Shown piece by piece: positions 3-38,071 of a stretch of DNA of 64,000 bases (positions are counted from its first letter, which is position 1; each line of letters starts with the position of its first letter). The position numbers and the translations under genes are program-made. Origin of the DNA: an uncultured Phycisphaerales bacterium (GTDB taxonomy: Bacteria; Planctomycetota; Phycisphaerae; Tepidisphaerales; Tepidisphaeraceae); the NCBI GenBank assembly GCA_963755915.1, contig CAVWLP010000003.1, positions 576,001-640,000 of the forward strand. The letters run 5' to 3'. The notes under the pieces were generated by a model. That model ran no database searches. It was not told the origin of the DNA and worked only from the letters and a program-made list of their open reading frames with translations.

Positions 3-176
3 GCCGAAAATCAGTCGAATTGGGATGCGGCGCGACAACAGTATCAGGCCATCATCAGCAGTGATGCATCGCAGCCGTATAAGGATTATGCGAAGAAGAG
101 AATGGATTTGCTGGGGCAATTGGAAAAGCCCGCGGCGGTCGATTTTTCCGCGAGCACGCAACCGACAACAAGATAA
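3..176 (+). CDS. 3' end of a TPR-like (YfgM-like) protein, partial
   Basis: Open frame AENQSNWDAARQQYQAII...YAKKRMDLL...STQPTTR* runs in from the window edge. Helical TPR-like pattern plus an STQP tail. Confidence 0.5.
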   Translation, partial: AENQSNWDAARQQYQAIISSDASQPYKDYAKKRMDLLGQLEKPAAVDFSASTQPTTR

Positions 177-10473: not shown

Positions 10474-12105
10474 TTACCTAAAATCCCCGCACACAGAGAC
10501 TTCCAATCCAAGCTCATCCATCGCCGCCGCCTTGGCAAAGAGCGCCTTCTGGGCGTCTTTTAACGTCGGGGCATACGCAACCTGGATGTGATTAGCCAAA
10601 TGGCGAGCCATCATCTGATCGCGGGAAACGCCATTCAGCACCGCATGCATGATGGGCCAGACCGGCGTCGTCTGGTCGAGCCGATCCTGCGTTTCCGAAT
10701 CCGGTAGCCCCACCGCCTGTCCCAACCCAATGTCCATTTTCAGCGCGTCGTCCTGAACGAAGACCCTGCTCCAGACAATGTGCCCCGGCTTGCTCACACC
10801 GGAACACGTCCCACCACCGAGCCGAAAATACATCCCCGGCTGACGATAACTCTGAACGCCCGCCCATTCGTTAACGAAATGCTTCGGCGGCGCGCCCCCA
10901 CTAATCTCAAACACCCACACATAAGCATTGAGTTCCGTATTCGCCCCCTCAGCGTCGAAGCCCGGACCGGCATAGTGCCGCCCCCACCTCAGGTCGTGCA
11001 AAGTATTCTCCGGGTCAAACCCAAGCTCACGCCAAAGCTTGTAGGTAATCAGCCCATCCAGCCCCGCGCACTCATCCACTTCGTTGAAATGTGGTAGCCC
11101 CTCCCCCGCGAACAATTCGCGCGACCCATCCGCGCTTCTCACCGGTGGTCGCTCAACATTATTCAGCGTTCCCTCAACAAGATCGCTAGCCGGCGCCAGG
11201 TCTTTGAGCCCCTGCTGATACTGAATGCCAATGGTCTGGCACCCAAAATCATCCGCGATCCGCAGGGCCGCGATGTACATCTTGCACTGCTCGATCACCT
11301 GCCGCTCGGTGAGGTCCCCCTCTTCGCTGGGCCCAAAATGAAACTTCACTCCCTTGGTTTTAAACCAGTCGTACACCCCGCGGGCTTCCTCATCCCGCAC
11401 CTGCGTCATGGCAAAGTAAAGCGCACTTTGGCTAAGCCTCTCCTTGAAAACCCCCAGCGGATTCAAGAGCGAATCGGGAATGATCGCGTTGAACATCCCC
11501 ATGCACCCTTCGTCGAAGACCCCCATGATCGCCCGCTCTTTTCGAAATCTCTCCGCGAATCCAACCCCAATTTTTTTCGCCTGCCGCGGCACCCTCACCG
11601 ATTTCAGCGAATGAACCTGTTTGGTTTTGTGCGACGCCTTGCCATCCCGCATCCAGTGTTTCAGTTTTTTCAGAAACACCGGATCGTTCTCAAAATCTTC
11701 GCTCCACAGCGTCGAATATTTGATCCCCGCCTTAGCCATCGACCCGTTGAGGTTGAGCATCCCCACCAATCCCGGCCAGGTCCCGCTCCAGTTCGCAACG
11801 GTCAAAATCGGCCCCTTATGAAACTGCAGCCCATGCAAAACATGATGCGAATATTGCCACACCGCCTCAGCAACAATCAGCGGCGCCTTCGGCGGAATAT
11901 TCCGAAAAACCTCCATCCCATATTTCTGCGAGTCGATAAAACTATGCCCCACATCTTCCCGGAACCCATGCGCCCGGTGAACCTGCCCCCCAAGCTTTTC
12001 AATGGCCGCGGCAAGTGAAGCTTCCATTTTGAGCTGCTCAGCTTCGCATTTCTGGTTGGCAGACGCCCGAAGATCGCCGGAGGCGATGAGTTGGATGGGT
12101 TTCAT
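10474..12105 (-). CDS. L-fucose/L-arabinose isomerase-like protein
   Basis: [55 protein letters not shown]. Confidence 0.7.
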
Positions 12106-12212
12106 GATGTCAGGGAAAGCTATTGATTTTCGACGAGCAAATCAATTTGCGCGGATTAACAAGTCCGAACCGTGCAACTCCAGACACTAAACCACAACTA
12201 TGCTCCCCCGTC

Positions 12213-12244
12213 TTGTTTAGCCGCAACCCCGCAGGGGTGCGCGT
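12213..12244 (+). repeat. REP-A variant copy
   Basis: TTGTTTAGCCGCAACCCCGCAGGGGTGCGCGT. Confidence 0.85.
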
Positions 12245-12250
12245 TTAGTT

Positions 12251-12369
12251 TCCATTGCCCCAGCGTTTGCAGATTCCTTCGAACTTCAACAATCTCACCC
12301 CAAAAATCTCCGGATTTCCCAAAAATAGGTACAAAACGTACACCTTTTGGACCTGTATATAGACGCGTA
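12251..12369 (+). promoter_or_regulatory. Conserved ~120-bp upstream element (copy 1), possible alternative-sigma promoter
   Basis: Shares TCCATTGCCCC, CAGATTC, CCGGATTT, CAAAAATAGGTACAAAACGT, CACCT and GGACCTGTATATAGA with 36961-37075 (- strand). Confidence 0.6.
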
Positions 12370-12432
12370 CTATTTTTCCCTGCGCCCGACACGCGCTAAA
12401 ATACGAACCCGCAATCCCCCGCGCTTGTCCGT

Positions 12433-12478
12433 GTAGCCGGCGAGCTTGCTCGCCGTGAGCCTGTCGAACGGCTCGCCG
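12433..12478 (+). repeat. GTAG-type REP hairpin with a nested second repeat
   Basis: GTAGCC-GGCGAGC-TT-GCTCGCC followed by TGAGCCTGTCGAACG, which is flanked by a direct repeat of GCTCGCCG (12448-12455 and 12471-12478). Confidence 0.7.
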
Positions 12479-12493
12479 ATCCCAGGAGTTACC

Positions 12494-12778
12494 ATGACCC
12501 CCGAGCCCGCACCCCACTACCCGGCCTTAAGCGCCCACCAATCGCGGGTAAGACCAGGTAACACCGCCCCAAAAGTGAGATATTTTGGGAAATGTGGGAA
12601 CCACCCGCTCCTTCAACCTCACCCAACTCCAACTGCTCGCCATCGCCCTCGCGCGCCTTATCCCCCGCCCCCGGTACTCCGGGGGAGGGTTGGGGAGGGG
12701 GCCGACCTGCAAAGGATCGCCCGATGCAAGAAACCCCCAAAAGTGAGAAATTGTGGGAACTACCCCCTTCTCGTTTAG
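12494..12778 (+). CDS. Small repeat-laden hypothetical ORF
   Basis: AGGAG RBS upstream of ATG; repeated PKVRxxxxCGNxP peptide; contains a REP-C hairpin. Confidence 0.35.
   Translation: MTPEPAPHYPALSAHQSRVRPGNTAPKVRYFGKCGNHPLLQPHPTPTARHRPRAPYPPPPVLRGRVGEGADLQRIARCKKPPKVRNCGNYPLLV
12662..12701 (-). repeat. REP-C (CCCTCCCC-type) hairpin
   Basis: CCCCCGCCCCCGGTACTCCGGGGGAGGGTTGGGGAGGGGG, nearly identical to 19131-19170. Confidence 0.85.
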
Positions 12779-12802
12779 CCGCAACCCCGCAGGGGTGCGC
12801 GT
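12773..12802 (+). repeat. REP-A variant copy
   Basis: GTTTAGCCGCAACCCCGCAGGGGTGCGCGT, identical to 12215-12244. Confidence 0.85.
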
Positions 12803-12811
12803 CGCTTTGTT

Positions 12812-14413
12812 TCAATGCGCCGCGACCAACTCCCCCCCATGTCCCGGCCGCCGCATAAAAATCATCAGCGGAATCACCAGGAGTGTCAGTACCCCAAACA
12901 GTCGGAACATATCCAGATAAGAAAGGATCGCCGCCTGCTGCTGCACGAGCCCGTAGATCGTCGCCAGCGCCGCCCGCCCATTGGTCGGGTCGCCGGGGCC
13001 GAAGATTCCCGCCGCTTGTTTCATCAGCGCAGTCGCCATCGGATTCAAAATATTAATGTGGCCAACGAGATTCACCTGATGGGTCTGGATCCGCCGCGCA
13101 AGCATCGTAGAGACGCTGGCAACCCCAATGCTCGCCGCTTCGTTTCGCACCAGCGAGAAAAGACCCGACGCATTGTTCGTTTCCGACTTGGGGATAAACC
13201 GGTAAGCCACCGTATTGATCGGCACGAACATCATCCCCGCCCCCAGCACCTGCACAATTCGCGGCCAGATGACGTCTTTCTCGGAGACGAGCAGATCGAG
13301 CCGCGACATCATAAAAGCCGCGATGGCCGCGATGAATAGTCCGAACGCGATCATTCGCCGCGGGTCAAACCCGCGCGAAAGCAGAATGCCGATGATCGGC
13401 ATCTCCGCCATGGTCACCAGCCCCGCCGGCGAAAGCACCAACCCCGCCTGCGTCGCCGAATATCCCATCAGCGTCTGCATCATCTGCGGCAGCAGCACCG
13501 TGCTCGCGTAAAGCGTCGCGTAAATAAAAAATATCACCAGGCAACTCAGCATGAAATTCCGCTCGCCAAAAAGGCGCAGATTCACGATCGGCGCAGGATG
13601 GAGCATCTCCCACACCACCGCGCCAATCAGCGCAAAGCCCGCGATCGCTGCCAGGACGATGATAAAATTTGACCCGAACCAGTCCGATTCCTGCCCCTTG
13701 TCCAAAACCACTTCCAGCGACGCCAGGCCCAGCGCGATCAGCGAAAGCCCCACGAAATCGACCCGAATCGGTTTCCCTTTTTTCGCCGCCCGCTGCGCGA
13801 TCATGTAAGGCGGATCGCGAAGAACGATTTGCGTCAGAATCAGCGAGATGATCCCGACGGGAAGATTGATGTAGAAAATCCACCGCCAGGAATAGTTGTC
13901 GGTGATCCATCCGCCCAGCGTGGGACCCAGCACCGGGGCAACAAGGACGGCCATCCCATACACGGCCATCGCCATCCCGCGCTTCGCCGCCGGAAACGTG
14001 TCCAGAAGGATCGCCTGCACCGAAGGCTGCAGCCCCCCACCGCCGATCCCTTGCAGGATGCGAAAGAAAATCAGCATCGGCAGGCTCGTCGCCAAACCGC
14101 ACAGAACCGAACTGACCGTGAAAATGGCCACGCAAGTCATGTTGAACCGCTTGCGCCCCATCAGCGTCGTCAGCCACCCCGAAAGCGGAAGAATCACCGC
14201 ATTGGAAACCAGGTAGCTGGTCAGCACCCACGTCGCCTCGTCATAGGTGGCCGCCATCGAGCCGGCAATATGCGGCAGCGAAAGATTCGCAATGCTCGTG
14301 TCCAGCACCTCCATAAATGTCGAGACGGTGACCGTCAGCGCCACCACCCAGGGATTAAATTCGTGGGTGTCGCGATCGATGTTGAGCGAAATTGCCCCGG
14401 CGGATGCGCTCAT
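12812..14413 (-). CDS. emrB: DHA2-family MFS efflux permease (EmrB-like)
   Basis: FMEVLDTSIAN, WVLTSYLVSNA, LGPTLGGWITDNYSWRWIFYINLPVG, LDKGQESDWF. In-frame with the upstream adaptor in this sequence. Confidence 0.85.
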   Translation of the reverse strand: MSASAGAISLNIDRDTHEFNPWVVALTVTVSTFMEVLDTSIANLSLPHIAGSMAATYDEATWVLTSYLVSNAVILPLSGWLTTLMGRKRFNMTCVAIFTVSSVLCGLATSLPMLIFFRILQGIGGGGLQPSVQAILLDTFPAAKRGMAMAVYGMAVLVAPVLGPTLGGWITDNYSWRWIFYINLPVGIISLILTQIVLRDPPYMIAQRAAKKGKPIRVDFVGLSLIALGLASLEVVLDKGQESDWFGSNFIIVLAAIAGFALIGAVVWEMLHPAPIVNLRLFGERNFMLSCLVIFFIYATLYASTVLLPQMMQTLMGYSATQAGLVLSPAGLVTMAEMPIIGILLSRGFDPRRMIAFGLFIAAIAAFMMSRLDLLVSEKDVIWPRIVQVLGAGMMFVPINTVAYRFIPKSETNNASGLFSLVRNEAASIGVASVSTMLARRIQTHQVNLVGHINILNPMATALMKQAAGIFGPGDPTNGRAALATIYGLVQQQAAILSYLDMFRLFGVLTLLVIPLMIFMRRPGHGGELVAAH

Positions 14414-15991
14414 TGCGGATTGGAGTTTTGCGCTCTGCAACCGTTGCCCGGCATCGGAACCTTCGGGCGCCGTGCGGATGTCGATGTACGGCGTGACGGA
14501 AAGGCCCGCGAAAAGAGGAGTGTCCGTCGGATTGGGTTCAGTCAGATCGATGCGAACCGGCAGACGCTGCACGACCTTCACGAAATTTCCGGTGGCGTTT
14601 TCGGGCGGTAGAAGCGACAGAACCGCCCCCGTGCCCGGGCTGAAGCCGGAGACGCGGCCGTGGAAAACCTTGTCGCCATACGCGTCGACATAGATATCCA
14701 CCTTCTGCCCGATCCGAATGTCCGAAAGCTGCGTCTCCTTGAAGTTGGCGTCGATCCACACATCCGACAGCGGCCGAATCGCCAGCAGCGGCTGCCCAAC
14801 CGACACGAACGCACCGGGGTTAACATTCCGCCGGCTGATAAACCCCGCGAGCGGAGCACGAATGTCGGTGTATCCAAAATCAAGCTTCGCCTGATCGAGC
14901 GCCTTCTGCGCCGCGACAATCGCCGGCTGGTTTTCCGGGTGCACGCGATCGAATTTATTGCCACCCAGCGCCGCCTGCGCCGAAGCAACCTGCGCTTCCG
15001 CCGCTCTCACCGATGGCGAGTTCTCGACCACCGCCTCGATGTTGAGCTCATGAAGCTGCGATTTCATCTCCTCCAGCCGCGGCGCCGTCATCGACTCAAA
15101 ATCCAGCCCAAGCTGCGCGAATTGCCCAAGGAAAGTCGAGATCGCGTATTGCGTGCCGTTAAAGTCTTGCGCCACGTTGTCAGGAACCACCCCCGGATTA
15201 ACCTCATCCGGCGGCAGACTCAGCAGCGCCCGACTTTGCTGCACCGTCGCATCCGCCGATGCAACCTGTGCCTCGGCAATCGCCAGATTAGACCGCCGCT
15301 GGTCAATCTCTTCCTGGCTGATGCTCTGCGTACCAAGGTGAATCGCCCGGTTATACAAATCCTGCGCCAGCTTGAGGCTCGCCTGCTGCTGCCGAAGGTT
15401 GGCCACGTTCGATTGCAGCGCCGCGGTCTCATATTTCACAAAGTCCTGCACCGTCGCCACGAGATAAGCCGCCCCGCGCAAATCAGCCACCTTAGAACGC
15501 ACTTCGGCGCGAGTGTTCTGAAGCTGCGCATCGGCCAGATCCAGCGCCGCGATCCGCTGCGCCACGGTGAGCTTCGCCTGATCCAGCTCTGCTTGCCGCT
15601 GATCGACCGCGAGCTGATACGGCTCATGATCGATTTCGATCATCGGCTGCCCCGCCTGGACAAACTGGTTGTCGTCCACCAGCACATTTTCCGCCACTCC
15701 CGCCACGCGCGGGCTGATGTACGTAACGTGACTATTGACCTCCGCGTCGTCCGTAGAGGCATGATTCCAGGCGTAAATCGCCGGCGGCACGCCAAACACC
15801 AACGCCAAAATCGCCGCAACCGCGAGCAGCGCGATCGCCACCCATCGCCGCCGGATCTTTTTCCGCTCCATCCCCGGCGGATGCGACGGCATCACGCTCT
15901 CCGGTGCCGATGGCGTCACGTACGTCTCGGCAGCGTCGTTCTCCGAGAGAGGCATCGGGGATTCAACAACTGTTGTTTCTTCAGTGGCCAT
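14410..15991 (-). CDS. emrA: HlyD/EmrA-family periplasmic adaptor
   Basis: STDDAEV, ISPRVAG, ANFKETQL, LLPPENATGNFVKVVQRLPVRI. Confidence 0.85.
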
Positions 15992-16658
15992 TGTGGTTTC
16001 CGTTGGTACTTCTCTGCCGACTGCGGGCACGCTCTTTCTCGCTCAGGATCCCGTTGAAAAAGATATCGAGAATATCCCGCGCCTGGGCCGCATAAGGCTT
16101 CTGCCGCCCAACAAAATGGTTCGTGAACATCGTCCCGTACATAAGATCGCCCCAGAAATCGATCACCCGCTCGATCGGCAAATTCCGAATTCGCCGCTGC
16201 GCCATCAGCCGGGCCAGCCGCTCTCGCCACAGCGCCCGGCGAGCGTCTTTCTGCTGGAAATAAACCGGAACGTGCTTTTCCCGAAATTCGGCACGCTCCT
16301 GGATGAAGAGCTCAACCAGCTGCGGATTCTTTTTGAAAAATCGCAAATAGGCGACCGCGGTCGCCCGGATTTCCTCCAGCGTATCCGTGATCCCCACCCG
16401 CGAGGCATCGATCTCCTCCTTCAGCCGACCAATCCCCTCCTCCACCGCCCCCAGAAAAAGCTTTTCCTTGCTCGGGTAATACCGGTAGATCGTCCCCTTG
16501 CTGATCCCCAGCGCATCGGCGATCCACTGCACGTCCGTATCGGTGAAGCCGTGCTTCGCGAAAAGCGAAGCCGCCTCTTTCAGAATCGCCGAACAGCGCC
16601 GCTCACGCAGCGCTTCATCAGGCGGACGACCCGGATTTCTTTTCAAAATCGTGCCCAT
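15981..16658 (-). CDS. TetR/AcrR-family regulator
   Basis: ILKEAASLFAKHGFTDTDVQWIADALGISKGTIYRYYPSKEKLF helix-turn-helix. Confidence 0.9.
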   Translation of the reverse strand: MGTILKRNPGRPPDEALRERRCSAILKEAASLFAKHGFTDTDVQWIADALGISKGTIYRYYPSKEKLFLGAVEEGIGRLKEEIDASRVGITDTLEEIRATAVAYLRFFKKNPQLVELFIQERAEFREKHVPVYFQQKDARRALWRERLARLMAQRRIRNLPIERVIDFWGDLMYGTMFTNHFVGRQKPYAAQARDILDIFFNGILSEKERARSRQRSTNGNHNGH

Positions 16659-34401: not shown

Positions 34402-36516
34402 TTAGAATAGCTCCGCATCGTCACTTTTCTTCCGCTTGGATTTTGATTTCTTTGGCGCGGGGCCCTCATCTTTTGGCGGCTCGACAGGTGCGGCGGTGGT
34501 CGCGACGCGGCTTTCGACCATCACCACGCCATCATCCTTCTCCAACTCCTCATCTGCCTTAACGGTGCGGCCCTCCTCGTCGAGCTTGGCGTCGGCTATC
34601 GCGGTACGCCGCTTGGCCTGGGCCTGGAGTGCTTCATAGAGCTTGGTGACGGGCGTCTTGTTGATCTTATTGACGGCCTGGCTGATCTCACCGATGTAGC
34701 GGGCGAAAACATCGCGCCGCTCGGCCTGGCGCTGCATCGTCTGGCGCTTACGGAGATAGGTGCCGAGCTTGCGGCCGCATTCCATCAGGGCGAGCTTCAT
34801 CTCCTTGCGGATTTCGTCATAGTCGGCGATCGCTTCCTTCGATTCGCTGGTGAACGGCACCCACACGCTGGCCATGTGAATCATGATTACCAGTGGGCCG
34901 ACGGGAACGGAGCCGCGCGGCTGGGAAAGGTTGTAATTTCTCCAGCCGGTTTCGGCGACTGCCTTAAAGCTGCTGCATGCGCTCTGCTGAAAGAGCAGCG
35001 GAACGCGGTTTGCGAAGCGAATGACGCGGGCGGTATCGTCCGCCGGAAGCTCGCCACCGAAGGCGATGGCCGCTTCGATCTGGAACGGCCGGCCGCGATA
35101 GACATCCGGCTCGCGGCTGCTGGCGGCGTAAAACTCGGCCTGCACGCCCTTCAGAAGCCCGGTCAGTAGCTGCCGCACGCCGATGGGGGCGAGGCAATCC
35201 GTCGGCGGGGAGGGAAGTTTTGCTTCCTGAAAACTCTGGAAAAGTTTTTCGACCTGGTTAGGCTCGAGATCGGAAACTTTCGTCCGGCTGTGGACGCCGA
35301 TCGACTTGCAGAAGTCGCTCGCCTTGCCAGGGGAGACGCGGGAGAATTTTTCCTGGAGGAAATTATAGAGGGTTCCGCCGCGTTTGTTGGAGTCCTCGTA
35401 ATCCTTCATCATCTGGATGAGGATTCCCAGTTCGATCCCCTTGGGATGGGGTTGGATTTCCTTCGTTTCCGGGGGAAGCTGCTCGGTGCCCCGCGGGAAG
35501 AGAATGACGCCGTCCTTTTCGGTCGTCGCCAGCGTCGGGTCGATGCCGTCCGGCGCGGTCGCGGCAACAGGCTCCGCCGGCGCGGCCGCATCCTTGGCGG
35601 CATTCGTCAGCGGCAGATCTTCCTGGTCGTCGGCGCTGACACGGGTTGGGGGAACGAAGCTGATTCGCGCATGGGGGTTGGCGATCGCGCACAGCTCGAG
35701 GAATTCATCAACGCTGCCGCGGCCTTTCTGGTAGCGGCCTTCCAATTCGATGCTGACGCTGGTGCCGGTTTCGAAATCTTCGGGGTTGAGGAATCCGGGG
35801 TCGCGCGTGCCGGAATTTAAGGTCTTAAATCGCTGCGGTGGGAAATCGGCCTTGTCATCTTCGTGGCTGACCTCGGCCCGGTTGGTCTTGGTGTTCATGG
35901 CCAGCTCGATGTGGTGAGCCGGCTTTTTTGCGTGGGGGCGGGTGTGGATGACCATGGGCTTGCCGGTGGTGATCAGGCCATACATTCCGGCCGCGCTGAT
36001 GCCAATGCCCTGCTGTCCGCGCCACATTTTCAGGCGATGGAACTTGCTGCCGAAGAGGAGCCGGCCGAAAACATTCTCGACCTGCTTGCGGACAATGCCG
36101 GGGCCGTTGTCGATGACGGTGACGCGATAGCGCGATTGCTTCGCGGTGGCGGGCCGATCGGGCTGAAGGTCTTCGATGATGACGGCAACATTTGGAAGGA
36201 TGCCGGCCTCTTCGCAGGCGTCGAGCGAATTGTCGACGGCTTCCTTGACGGTGGTAAGCAGCGCCTTGCGCGGATTGTCGAAGCCCAGCAGATGCCGGTT
36301 CTTGGCGAAGAACTCGCTGACGGCGATGTCCTTCTGCTTGGCGGCCAGCGTATCGGCGGTCTCGCGGCGGGTAGGCTTTGATCGGCGCGAGCCGGCGCCG
36401 TTTTTATCGGAACCTGATTCGGTTTGAGATTTGAAGAGCGTTTCGTTTTCGCGTTCGACGGATTCGTTCTGCTTCGCTTCGCGCAAATCCTGCATGCGGT
36501 GGGTCCTCCGTGCCAT
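34402..36516 (-). CDS. top6B: DNA topoisomerase VI subunit B
   Basis: VSEFFAKNRHLLGFDNP, KEAVDNSLDACEE, DNGPGI, RGQQGIG, RFANRVPL, VPFTSESKEAIA. Confidence 0.93.
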   Translation of the reverse strand: MARRTHRMQDLREAKQNESVERENETLFKSQTESGSDKNGAGSRRSKPTRRETADTLAAKQKDIAVSEFFAKNRHLLGFDNPRKALLTTVKEAVDNSLDACEEAGILPNVAVIIEDLQPDRPATAKQSRYRVTVIDNGPGIVRKQVENVFGRLLFGSKFHRLKMWRGQQGIGISAAGMYGLITTGKPMVIHTRPHAKKPAHHIELAMNTKTNRAEVSHEDDKADFPPQRFKTLNSGTRDPGFLNPEDFETGTSVSIELEGRYQKGRGSVDEFLELCAIANPHARISFVPPTRVSADDQEDLPLTNAAKDAAAPAEPVAATAPDGIDPTLATTEKDGVILFPRGTEQLPPETKEIQPHPKGIELGILIQMMKDYEDSNKRGGTLYNFLQEKFSRVSPGKASDFCKSIGVHSRTKVSDLEPNQVEKLFQSFQEAKLPSPPTDCLAPIGVRQLLTGLLKGVQAEFYAASSREPDVYRGRPFQIEAAIAFGGELPADDTARVIRFANRVPLLFQQSACSSFKAVAETGWRNYNLSQPRGSVPVGPLVIMIHMASVWVPFTSESKEAIADYDEIRKEMKLALMECGRKLGTYLRKRQTMQRQAERRDVFARYIGEISQAVNKINKTPVTKLYEALQAQAKRRTAIADAKLDEEGRTVKADEELEKDDGVVMVESRVATTAAPVEPPKDEGPAPKKSKSKRKKSDDAELF

Positions 36517-36544
36517 GTGTGTGGTTGCCGATTCTACCGGAAAG

Positions 36545-36937
36545 TTATCGGCAGTCGTGAACGGGAATCTTCAGCCCAGTCGTTAGGGGATTGTATGGGA
36601 TTGGTAATTTGTTTTCCAGACAGTGGAAGGGCTCCTGAGTGTTACGGCGGAGAAGGGCGCGATTTCCGCGGAATTTCCTACTTTCCAACTCCCAGTTTAT
36701 CTCAGTTTTTCCCAAATTGCGGTCGTGCGCCGCGAGAGAGTGGAGCAGTGGAGAGAGGCCCTCACCCCGGCCCTCTCCCGGAATACCGGGCGAGGGGGTA
36801 AGAGGGGAGTGCCGGGCGACGGGTGAGAAGGGACATGCGATCGCCCTGGTCGATTCCCCACAATTCCCCAAAATTCCCCAATTTTCGGATAGGGGGAGAT
36901 GGGGATTTGAAATTTGAGATTTCAGATGAGTGGACAT
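36545..36937 (-). CDS. Small repeat-laden hypothetical ORF (paralogous context to 12494-12778)
   Basis: GGAG RBS; follows the conserved upstream element; contains a REP-C hairpin and 10-nt periodic motifs. Confidence 0.35.
   Translation of the reverse strand: MSTHLKSQISNPHLPLSENWGILGNCGESTRAIACPFSPVARHSPLTPSPGIPGEGRGEGLSPLLHSLAAHDRNLGKTEINWELESRKFRGNRALLRRNTQEPFHCLENKLPIPYNPLTTGLKIPVHDCR
36756..36807 (+). repeat. REP-C hairpin
   Basis: AGGCCCTCACCCCGGCCCTCTCCCGGAATACCGGGCGAGGGGGTAAGAGGGG; 46/52 identical to 52006-52057. Confidence 0.9.
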
Positions 36938-36960
36938 AGACACTCCGGCGGACAAAACAT

Positions 36961-37075
36961 TACGCCTCTATATACAGGTCCGGAGGTGCACGTTTTGTAC
37001 CTATTTTTGCAAAAATCCGGGAGTTTTTTTTATGCGATCGATTGGAATGCAAAGAATCTGACAGGGGGCAATGGA
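36961..37075 (-). promoter_or_regulatory. Conserved ~120-bp upstream element (copy 2)
   Basis: Reverse complement aligns with 12251-12369. Confidence 0.6.
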
Positions 37076-37117
37076 TGGGGTGTTAAAAGAATTCGGCCGC
37101 TCAGATGGGGACGGAAG

Positions 37118-38071
37118 TTATTTCGTCAGATCCGCAAGCAGAGCCGCGAGGCGATACCCCGCGAGAGCGATCCGTTCATCCGCTGCTGCGAGAGCTTTCT
37201 GGGCGTAGCCATCTGGAAGTGCCGGCACGGAATGCGGATCGGAAATCGCCTGGTCCTTCGCGGCATGGGGAAGAGTTCCGTTTTGATAGGCAACGGATTG
37301 CGCGATCGCGTGGCTCTCCATGGCCCAGTCGATAAGCGAAAGATCGGCAATCTGATTCTTTAGCTGCGAGGCGGGATGCGCCGACTCGATCCGATCGGCA
37401 GCCTTGCGTACTTCATCCGGCGTAAGGAAAAGTCCCTCAACATCATCCCAATAGGCGTGCAGCGCGATCGGAACCTTCTGGGCATCGAGAACCATTTCCA
37501 GATTTCCCCCCTGGTCACCCTGCGGATATTCCTTCGAGAAAAGAGACGTGGAATGCAGCGGCTGGTGAATGTCGCCGACGAGGTGCTCGATCCAGCAGAG
37601 ATCAATCGCGCGGCGCGAGGGGGGAGTATGGGGATCCTTGAATTGCGCGGTGATCTTGTCCATCGCCTGAAGAAGATTGGCGGGATCGGAATGCCCGTCC
37701 CAAGCGATGACCGGCTGTGGCCCGTTCACGCCGTCCAGATCGTAGGGGAAATCGACGAAGTGCCAGTGGGGATGATTTTCCGTGCGATTAAGCGGATGCA
37801 CCGGATAGCGCACCATGTCCGGCCAGGTGGCGGCGCGGAGGAACATCGCCAGGTTGGTGTCGGCGGGGCGCTGCTCATCGTGCAGGAGGTCCTGCTTCAG
37901 GCGGGGGTGATTTTCTAAAATCGCTCCGATGGCCGATCGATTGGCCGGGGAAAGCTGGTCGTAGGCGATCTGGGCAATGATTTCATGCCCGGTGCTGTTC
38001 CAGGCGAAGCAGGGAACGGCAAAAAAGGTCGAAATTAAGGCAGCAAAGAGGCTGCGCAGGGGATGGGTCAC
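37118..38071 (-). CDS. S1/P1 nuclease
   Basis: Signal peptide then WNSTGH, AATWPD, WHFVD, HLVGDIHQPLH, DQGGN, LHAYWD, LAGYRLA. Confidence 0.9.
   Translation of the reverse strand: MTHPLRSLFAALISTFFAVPCFAWNSTGHEIIAQIAYDQLSPANRSAIGAILENHPRLKQDLLHDEQRPADTNLAMFLRAATWPDMVRYPVHPLNRTENHPHWHFVDFPYDLDGVNGPQPVIAWDGHSDPANLLQAMDKITAQFKDPHTPPSRRAIDLCWIEHLVGDIHQPLHSTSLFSKEYPQGDQGGNLEMVLDAQKVPIALHAYWDDVEGLFLTPDEVRKAADRIESAHPASQLKNQIADLSLIDWAMESHAIAQSVAYQNGTLPHAAKDQAISDPHSVPALPDGYAQKALAAADERIALAGYRLAALLADLTK

Follow-up and report, generated by a model that had tools for sequence, protein, structure and literature searches.

A genus-restricted repeat in a Phycisphaerales bacterium, probably derived from the control region and first codons of a small helix-turn-helix gene

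Introduction

The Correia elements (CREE) of Neisseria are promoter-bearing MITEs with terminal inverted repeats (TIR) and a duplicated TA target. The BOX elements of Streptococcus pneumoniae and the intergenic mosaic elements of Neisseria are built from modules that are non-coding by origin. In pac phages, the pac site lies in or beside terS. A limited literature search on repeats in Planctomycetes brought up no paper on that subject, a result that describes the search and makes no claim on what is in print.

Here we compare with these systems two loci, A and B, from a window of 64,000 nucleotides (C3:576001-640000) in the genome of an uncultured Phycisphaerales bacterium (G000; 6.63 Mb in three contigs, 81% complete, 59% GC). 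The original prediction had presented them as a new system of two copies that includes an ORF coding for a peptide, and this part found no support, as the loci appear to be relics; the broader idea of a multicopy, undescribed and lineage-restricted element was upheld. Both loci are probably degenerate members of a genus-restricted repeat made of the upstream control region and the first ~60 codons of a small helix-turn-helix (HTH) gene. The relatives used for comparison were 12 other genomes of the same genus and 18 genomes of other genera; G001 denotes the sister species.

Results

Composition of loci A and B

The stretches 12251-12369 (+) and 36961-37075 (-) align over ~120 nt and have in common a near-identical core that runs from AAAAATAGGTACAAAACGT to TATATAGA. 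Both leaders match one nhmmer profile, at 12270-12376 (+) with E 6.8e-27 and at 37060-36954 (-) with E 1.3e-24. The alignment bears out the shared leader blocks that had been predicted, apart from the first, TCCATTGCCCC, which occurs in 2 of 34 full-length copies and was rejected as a block of the family. The other predicted parts are all present, namely an RBS and ATG with the open frames 12494-12778 (+) and 36937-36545 (-), a REP-C hairpin in both loci and, again in both, phased GGGA/GAGA motifs grouped in two clusters. The parts of the two loci are given below.

Locus A (12216-12802)
12216..12246, + strand: REP-type hairpin 'R1', copy 1 (nhmmer; an independent 35-copy family, outside the leader unit)
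12267..12386, + strand: leader (the family profile matches 12270-12376)
12421..12460, + strand: second REP-type hairpin (GTAGCC...GCGAGCTTGCTCGC; ~29 BLAST hits in G000), inserted in the putative former 5' UTR
12484..12496, + strand: putative ancestral RBS (AGGAG) and ATG (12494); the intact gene at C2:4027093 has a homologous start
12567..12659, + strand: module 1, a putative relic of HTH-gene codons ~40-65, with a phased GAGA/GGGA triple at 12575-12601
12651..12710, no strand assigned: 'REP-C' hairpin (~150 BLAST hits in G000)
12735..12783, + strand: module 2, a putative truncated second relic copy (direct repeats D2, D3)
12774..12802, + strand: REP-type hairpin 'R1', copy 2 (nhmmer)
Locus B (36545-37060)
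36954..37060, - strand: leader (nhmmer E 1.3e-24)
36935..36937, - strand: putative ancestral ATG (peptide start MSTHLKSQISN, like family starts such as MSAHPKSEIAN; E 0.05, weak)
36852..36888, - strand: module 1, with three TGGGGAAT units at 36880-36853 (module profile E 5.6e-4)
36755..36806, no strand assigned: REP-C hairpin (approximate ends, from the sequence)
36689..36716, - strand: module 2, degenerate (TGGGAAAAAC TGAGATAAAC TGGGAG)

In the intergenic region of locus A, 12106-12811, at least five repeat families form a mosaic, namely the leader, two REP-type hairpins, REP-C and the GGGA module. This region is flanked by a fucose-isomerase-like gene on one side and an HlyD-MFS fusion gene on the other; the latter (window 12812-16030, -) encodes a 1072-aa fusion of an HlyD-type membrane-fusion protein and an MFS transporter. 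Members of the R1 family carry a C-rich prefix ahead of GTTTAGCCGCAACCCCGCAGGGGTGCGCGT and in many cases a tail rich in T, number 35 genome-wide and may act as terminators; hairpins related to R1, with the prefix GTAGCC or TTAGCC, come after several genes. Locus B sits upstream of a topoisomerase VI subunit B gene (Topo-VIb_trans, E 8e-57; window 34402-36516, -), which follows it directly in this planctomycete genome.

A family of 60 leader loci

A three-round nhmmer search of G000 with the leader (E<=1e-3) gave 64 hits, which represent 60 loci because eight of the hits are halves of four leaders split by insertions; the two loci first noticed are thus not the only ones. The left edge of the family is sharp, near 12267, and opens a constant head of ~105 nt. 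Conservation peaks from the A-tract through TATATAGAG and falls directly after, and in leader A the best-conserved core spans ~12302-12366, with TATATAGA ending the core at 12356-12363. On crude gene calls, 57 of the 64 hits overlap no called gene, and leaders showed no orientation bias relative to the next downstream gene (35 same, 29 opposite).

A module profile built from window 12556-12645 gave 27 hits, 24 of which follow a same-strand leader at a distance of 28-360 nt. Phased triples of G[GA]GA cores were found downstream, on the same strand, at 20 of 60 leaders versus 40 of 5000 random 400-nt windows, with 2 of 60 leaders on the opposite strand and 0-1 of 60 upstream as controls. The link between leader and module is far above chance, and the two form one unit. 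The downstream parts of leaders are of at least three unrelated types, with indel variation even between orthologues.

We also observed a 1491-bp IS4-like element (e.g. C2:1217732-1219222) with a 420-aa DDE_Tnp_1 transposase and 17-nt inverted ends, present as 23 full-length copies (99.7-100% identity) and two broken ones, none of them inside the window, and flanked by 8-bp duplications. Its target resembles (T)ACAAAAYGT; four copies struck the same 8 bp of the leader core and a fifth sits in the module just downstream of a leader. The proposal that the leader is the end of a known IS was rejected, as the element splits the four leaders in both orientations at this one site, which fits its general ACAAAAYGT-like target seen at many non-leader sites. 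The IS4-like copies are insertions into leaders and not their parent.

Intact helix-turn-helix genes behind the leader

A full-length version of the unit with an HTH gene had been anticipated, and in G000 four leaders are indeed followed, after 33-91 nt, by an intact ORF of 169-178 aa, with codon scores like those of genes. HTH_23 scores above the Pfam cut-off (24.6 bits) in all four proteins, at 24.7-28.5 bits. Sf6_terminase (Pfam) reaches 26.5 bits in one of the four, below its cut-off of 27, and PHROGs small-terminase families match the intact proteins with E 1e-6 to 1e-8. In an AlphaFold model (mean pLDDT 70) residues 1-56 are disordered and five helices are placed at 67-156. The best PDB match by Foldseek is 2ao9, a phBC6A51 phage protein (E 1e-2, probability 1.0, TM 0.5 on target), and Sf6 gp1 ranks 38 among the PDB fold matches. 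A database of 5.8 billion proteins held only 12 homologues, none functionally named, and these conserve at the protein level the N-tail motifs SEISNFKSEI, then K/Q-S/N-G-E-x-W-G, then SFNL-S/T-x-LQ. The dN/dS ratio in the HTH part was 0.21 in one intact pair and 0.83 in a second, the genes of which may be drifting.

The genes neighbouring the intact units are unrelated, and the full-length units encode the HTH_23 protein only, with no transposase or recombinase. Neither a large terminase (PF03237, PF20441, PF03354) nor an HK97 capsid (PF05065) was found in the 81%-complete genome, so a terminase role is unsupported as far as this incomplete genome goes. Searching G000 by tblastn returned the four intact genes, one leaderless paralogue, four N-terminal fragments that adjoin leaders and a single weak, partial match at another site, with no leaderless HTH-only fragment of the subfamily. 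The leaderless paralogue (C2:3393868-3394446) is full-length with 40% identity and has, by eye, its own sigma-70-like promoter. Within C2:3393778-3396181 it directly precedes the gene of a 517-aa protein, the N-terminus of which appears ECF-sigma-like by eye.

Two short repeat motifs, CTACTCTC...CTACTCTC and tandem heptamers of GGCAATCGGCAATC, occur in the 5' UTRs of intact units (e.g. L079, L080, L006); they stand between leader and ATG in several species and are also seen upstream of some tRNA genes. About 30 tRNA genes were found by ARAGORN within ~2.9 kb (C2:3699152-3702004), an array of a kind often linked to mobile elements or phages.

Other genes were also noted behind leaders. A divergent leader stands directly upstream of a gene for DUF3987, a domain linked to phage and plasmid primases, in G006. 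Solo DUF3987 genes behind leader-like sequence are G006 C5:115825-117273 (L090:8826-10274, minus strand) and G000 C2:3008208-3009587, the latter separated from its leader by an IS fragment of ~1 kb. A RelA_SpoT protein of 355 aa (C2:1087903-1088970; L102:304-1371) matches PADLOC PDC-S33 over its full length (E 4e-98); a partial leader copy lies ~50 nt ahead of its gene, and the interval holds what by eye is a sigma-70-like promoter of the gene itself.

Decay of the other copies and of the small ORFs

Comparison of the 60 downstream regions with the protein profile gave four full and eight partial matches, and the partial ones never extend past position 77, which lies before the HTH domain. In locus A, module 1 matches profile positions 12-56 (i-E 0.0096), and frame 12585, which reads GNVGTTRSFNLTQLQLLAIALAR / GNVGTTRSFNLTQLQLLAI, matches the intact protein P0003 with E 2e-6. 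The ATG at 12494 opens a different frame from this one, and by reading of the sequence a 1-nt frameshift relative to the intact genes sits inside the triple. REP-C interrupts the relic coding sequence immediately ahead of the HTH domain, at the same junction as in the paralogues C2:3101694 and C3:1297769. In locus B, the open frame from the ATG reads module 1 one base off the intact-gene frame, again by reading of the sequence. Protein-level evidence is weaker for this locus than for locus A, with E 0.05 for the peptide start and a weak E 0.63 for module 2 (KTEINWE versus KSEIFWD). The 10-nt periodic TGGGAA/TGAGA would be a relic codon string for G-E/K-F-W-E/G-N, since the homologues conserve the N-tail motifs at the protein level.

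The 'repeat-collecting small ORF' encoding rapidly evolving peptides that had been proposed is not borne out by these data. Codon scores are negative for ORF A (-0.15 per codon) and ORF B (-0.06), compared with 0.06-0.23 for the intact genes and 0.083 for the 10th percentile of called short genes, and the relic module is read off-frame. Indels of 1 and 2 nt, lengths not divisible by three, separate the closest paralogues. The orthologue of locus A in the sister species keeps the leader and lacks 12459-12646, including the RBS, the start codon and module 1, and has an extra module elsewhere. Judged by these sequence features the small ORFs of both loci appear to be relics and not genes. Their open frames are probably accidental in a genome of 59% GC.

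Distribution and stability in the genus

A profile scan from the leader, as had been proposed, recovered the ~60 loci of G000, and leader copies were also found in congeners. Leader matches were found in 8 of the 12 other same-genus genomes and in none of the 18 genomes of other genera; the HTH family is present in all 12, with 1-7 matches each, and in one of the 18. Exact matches to a 20-nt core pattern mark at least 34 leader copies in G001, and the two remaining matches of that search fall in unrelated bacteria. Expansion to tens of copies was seen in G000 and G001. Leader-like sequence stands 60-110 nt upstream of the HTH start codon in five of nine loci (G001, G004, G006, G008, G012), while three of the others differ in their upstream region and the last is truncated by the end of a contig. 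Because leader-like sequence precedes the HTH gene in these five loci across the genus, the arrangement of leader followed by HTH gene is ancestral there.

In G000 and G001, one intact unit occupies a syntenic position. Of the 34 G001 copies, compared by their unique flanks, 22 are orthologous to G000 copies, three lie where G000 has no leader and nine are unresolved. With 22 of 34 at orthologous sites, most G001 copies are old and stable. In 20 orthologous G000/G001 pairs, identity at leader positions 25-100 was 0.89-0.96 compared with 0.59-0.72 in the flanks; flanking genes are 86-92% identical between the two species. As core identity exceeds that of the flanks, the leader core is probably functional DNA. 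The high identity points either to purifying selection acting on the core or to copies homogenising one another; gene conversion among copies, not selection, could be its source.

Copying of the short form

Heads greatly outnumber tails in G000, with ~60 leaders versus ~5 HTH domains. Together with the REP-C junction common to three paralogues, this indicates that the short form itself was copied; simple decay of full copies accounts for neither the excess of heads nor the common junction.

We therefore weighed a non-autonomous mobile element, either MITE-like or spread by one-ended copy-out, in which leader and module would be moved by an enzyme encoded elsewhere and the HTH genes would be the source or autonomous-looking form. 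This is possible, though in our view unlikely. It would fit a family of ~60 loci whose left end is constant while the right end varies, three paralogues that suggest copying of a form already decayed, and the differences between species, where 155 unrelated nt replace ~520 nt at the G001 site of locus B and three of the 34 G001 copies have no leader in G000. The unit also shares with MITEs its short length, non-coding nature and many intergenic copies (60 loci; 57 of 64 hits outside called genes). The hallmarks of transposition, however, did not appear. There are no inverted pairs in 12190-12830 or 36520-37140, and no shared target duplication in the flanks of the 34 full-length copies. The cleanest indel (L069) is without TIR at its ends and does not match the edges of the family. 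A 40-nt direct repeat that flanks locus A was rejected as a target duplication, being two copies of the separate R1 family, in which 30 of 35 members fall outside the range -200..+900 nt around any leader. The full-length unit holds no transposase or recombinase, and the 22 of 34 copies at orthologous sites argue for a mostly old and stable set. Since TIR, target duplication and a transposase in the full-length unit are all absent, the leader unit is not a MITE. Nor is it of the REP/BIME type, as the quasi-palindrome of its core is not kept in the divergent copies of other species and REP-C, R1 and the GTAGCC hairpin are separate families. We also tried and rejected a tyrosine-recombinase-type core with 10-8-10 inverted arms, the arm symmetry being absent in other species.

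The leader core as a candidate cis-element

The conservation peak that ends just after TATATAGAG resembles the pattern of a promoter region. Leader A holds no TTGACA-16..18-TATAAT-like pair and the sole such site of locus B is outside the leader; tRNA genes of G000 show TTGACA-N17-TAnnnT upstream, by eye. Motifs of the sigma-54, sigma-E and ECF types gave no convincing fit in the leader when judged by eye. Because conservation is promoter-like, yet no sigma-70 consensus is seen, we infer that the core is a working cis-element, most likely a promoter or operator without the housekeeping sigma-70 consensus. The missing sigma-70 site and the unbiased orientation of leaders count against this reading. 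An alternative-sigma promoter, as first suggested for the leader, is possible. The promoter may be served by another sigma factor or an activator, and the HTH protein may be that factor; the core may likewise be a binding site of the HTH protein that the family encodes. Short non-coding or read-through transcripts may still begin at solo copies. A candidate intrinsic terminator, antisense to the core, was considered and rejected, its stem being weak and not conserved.

A putative extension of this reading is that the core and the flanking phased repeats form a binding platform for genus-specific TerS-like HTH proteins, in a chromosome-wide network of ~60 sites that would constitute a regulon or pac-like decoy or initiation sites. 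We regard this as quite unlikely. If it were true, some sites would stand ahead of accessory genes (HTH genes, DUF3987, the candidate defence gene PDC-S33 RelA_SpoT), and a regulon would be switched by the HTH proteins, for instance upon phage attack. In that case the short units would not be junk but be retained for a function, and this would account for the core being better conserved between species than neighbouring DNA.

Very unlikely, on the evidence that follows, is the idea that each unit is a small-RNA or short-peptide gene, with the leader as promoter, the GGGA-rich module as a functional RNA (e.g. a protein-titrating array) and the REP hairpin as terminator. Leader conservation ends abruptly, as at a transcription start, the modules lie downstream on the same strand, and a hairpin with a T-rich tail follows in locus A. 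Rfam, however, gave no match at gathering score in the whole window and none at E<=1 in 12100-12830. The 13+13 quasi-palindrome of the core, present in G000 and G001, is lost in the divergent copies of other species, which retain no candidate RNA stem. The variable downstream parts with their indels between orthologues also speak against an RNA gene, the module is explained by codons that the homologues conserve at the protein level, and the negative coding scores speak against peptides.

Finally, a pac-like or operator site of a TerS-like protein, by which the leader and phased repeats would mark ~60 chromosomal sites for packaging, transduction or phage interference, is highly improbable: small terminases are the best family and fold matches of the HTH protein, the leader lies beside its gene as pac does beside terS, the upstream half of the leader has GGGA/GAGA-type units inverted relative to the downstream triple (by reading of the sequence) and the other genes behind leaders are of accessory type, but neither large terminase nor HK97 capsid was found in the 81%-complete genome, the Sf6_terminase score is below cut-off with a Foldseek E of only 1e-2, and of the HTH genes at least one belongs to the chromosome by its synteny.

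Discussion

In the reading that we favour, the leader would be the upstream control region of a gene for a 169-178-aa protein, in which a disordered N-tail of ~60 residues precedes a helix-turn-helix and long helices with a likeness to phage small terminases and the phBC6A51 type. The leader and the first ~60 codons would have been multiplied to ~60 loci in G000 and in the sister species, leaving the whole gene in only four copies and one leaderless paralogue. In loci A and B, the leader would be followed by the old RBS and ATG and by frameshifted, duplicated pieces of the N-tail codons, cut by unrelated REP hairpins. Of this picture, the size and structure of the family, its connection with the gene and the decayed state of the ORFs are demonstrated, and the role of the core is deduced.

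This is an unusual dispersed repeat, made of a gene control region and first codons, with heads without tails and no transposon hallmarks. A one-sided repeat of this kind with a conserved core points to either an unrecognised copying route or a selected cis-element. For annotation, it follows that ~60 intergenic stretches in G000 and at least 34 in the sister species are to be masked as one repeat family, and that small ORFs inside leader loci are not to be called genes. The leader is a candidate DNA target for an uncharacterised small HTH family in Phycisphaerae, a group whose promoters and regulators have yielded almost no data, and the constrained leader core and its link to this family are the parts that merit experiments.

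Among described systems, the Correia elements are like the leader family in being short, high in copy number and mostly intergenic, in carrying regulatory signals and in lying in either orientation beside genes. They differ in their TIR and TA duplication, neither of which was found for the leader family, and the latter is derived from the 5' region of a gene. The BOX elements and the Neisseria mosaic elements share with it a constant module followed by variable numbers of others and interleaved with small hairpins, whereas the modules of the leader family appear to be codon relics of an identifiable gene whose upstream region corresponds to the head in five species. Phage TerS proteins (Sf6 gp1 and phBC6A51 2ao9) are the best family and fold matches of the intact protein and resemble it in the N-terminal HTH and the long helices. 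The intact protein, however, was found in no context of TerL, portal or capsid, has a 60-residue disordered tail, is encoded by a gene that stands alone on the chromosome and, with the exception of one further genome, is confined to one genus among the genomes searched. Families of pseudogenes from decaying paralogues are also comparable, as they hold frameshifted remnants with coding potential lost and with repeats interrupting them. Unlike these, the leader copies are one-sided, with leaders far in excess of HTH domains, and have a core that is better conserved than its flanks.
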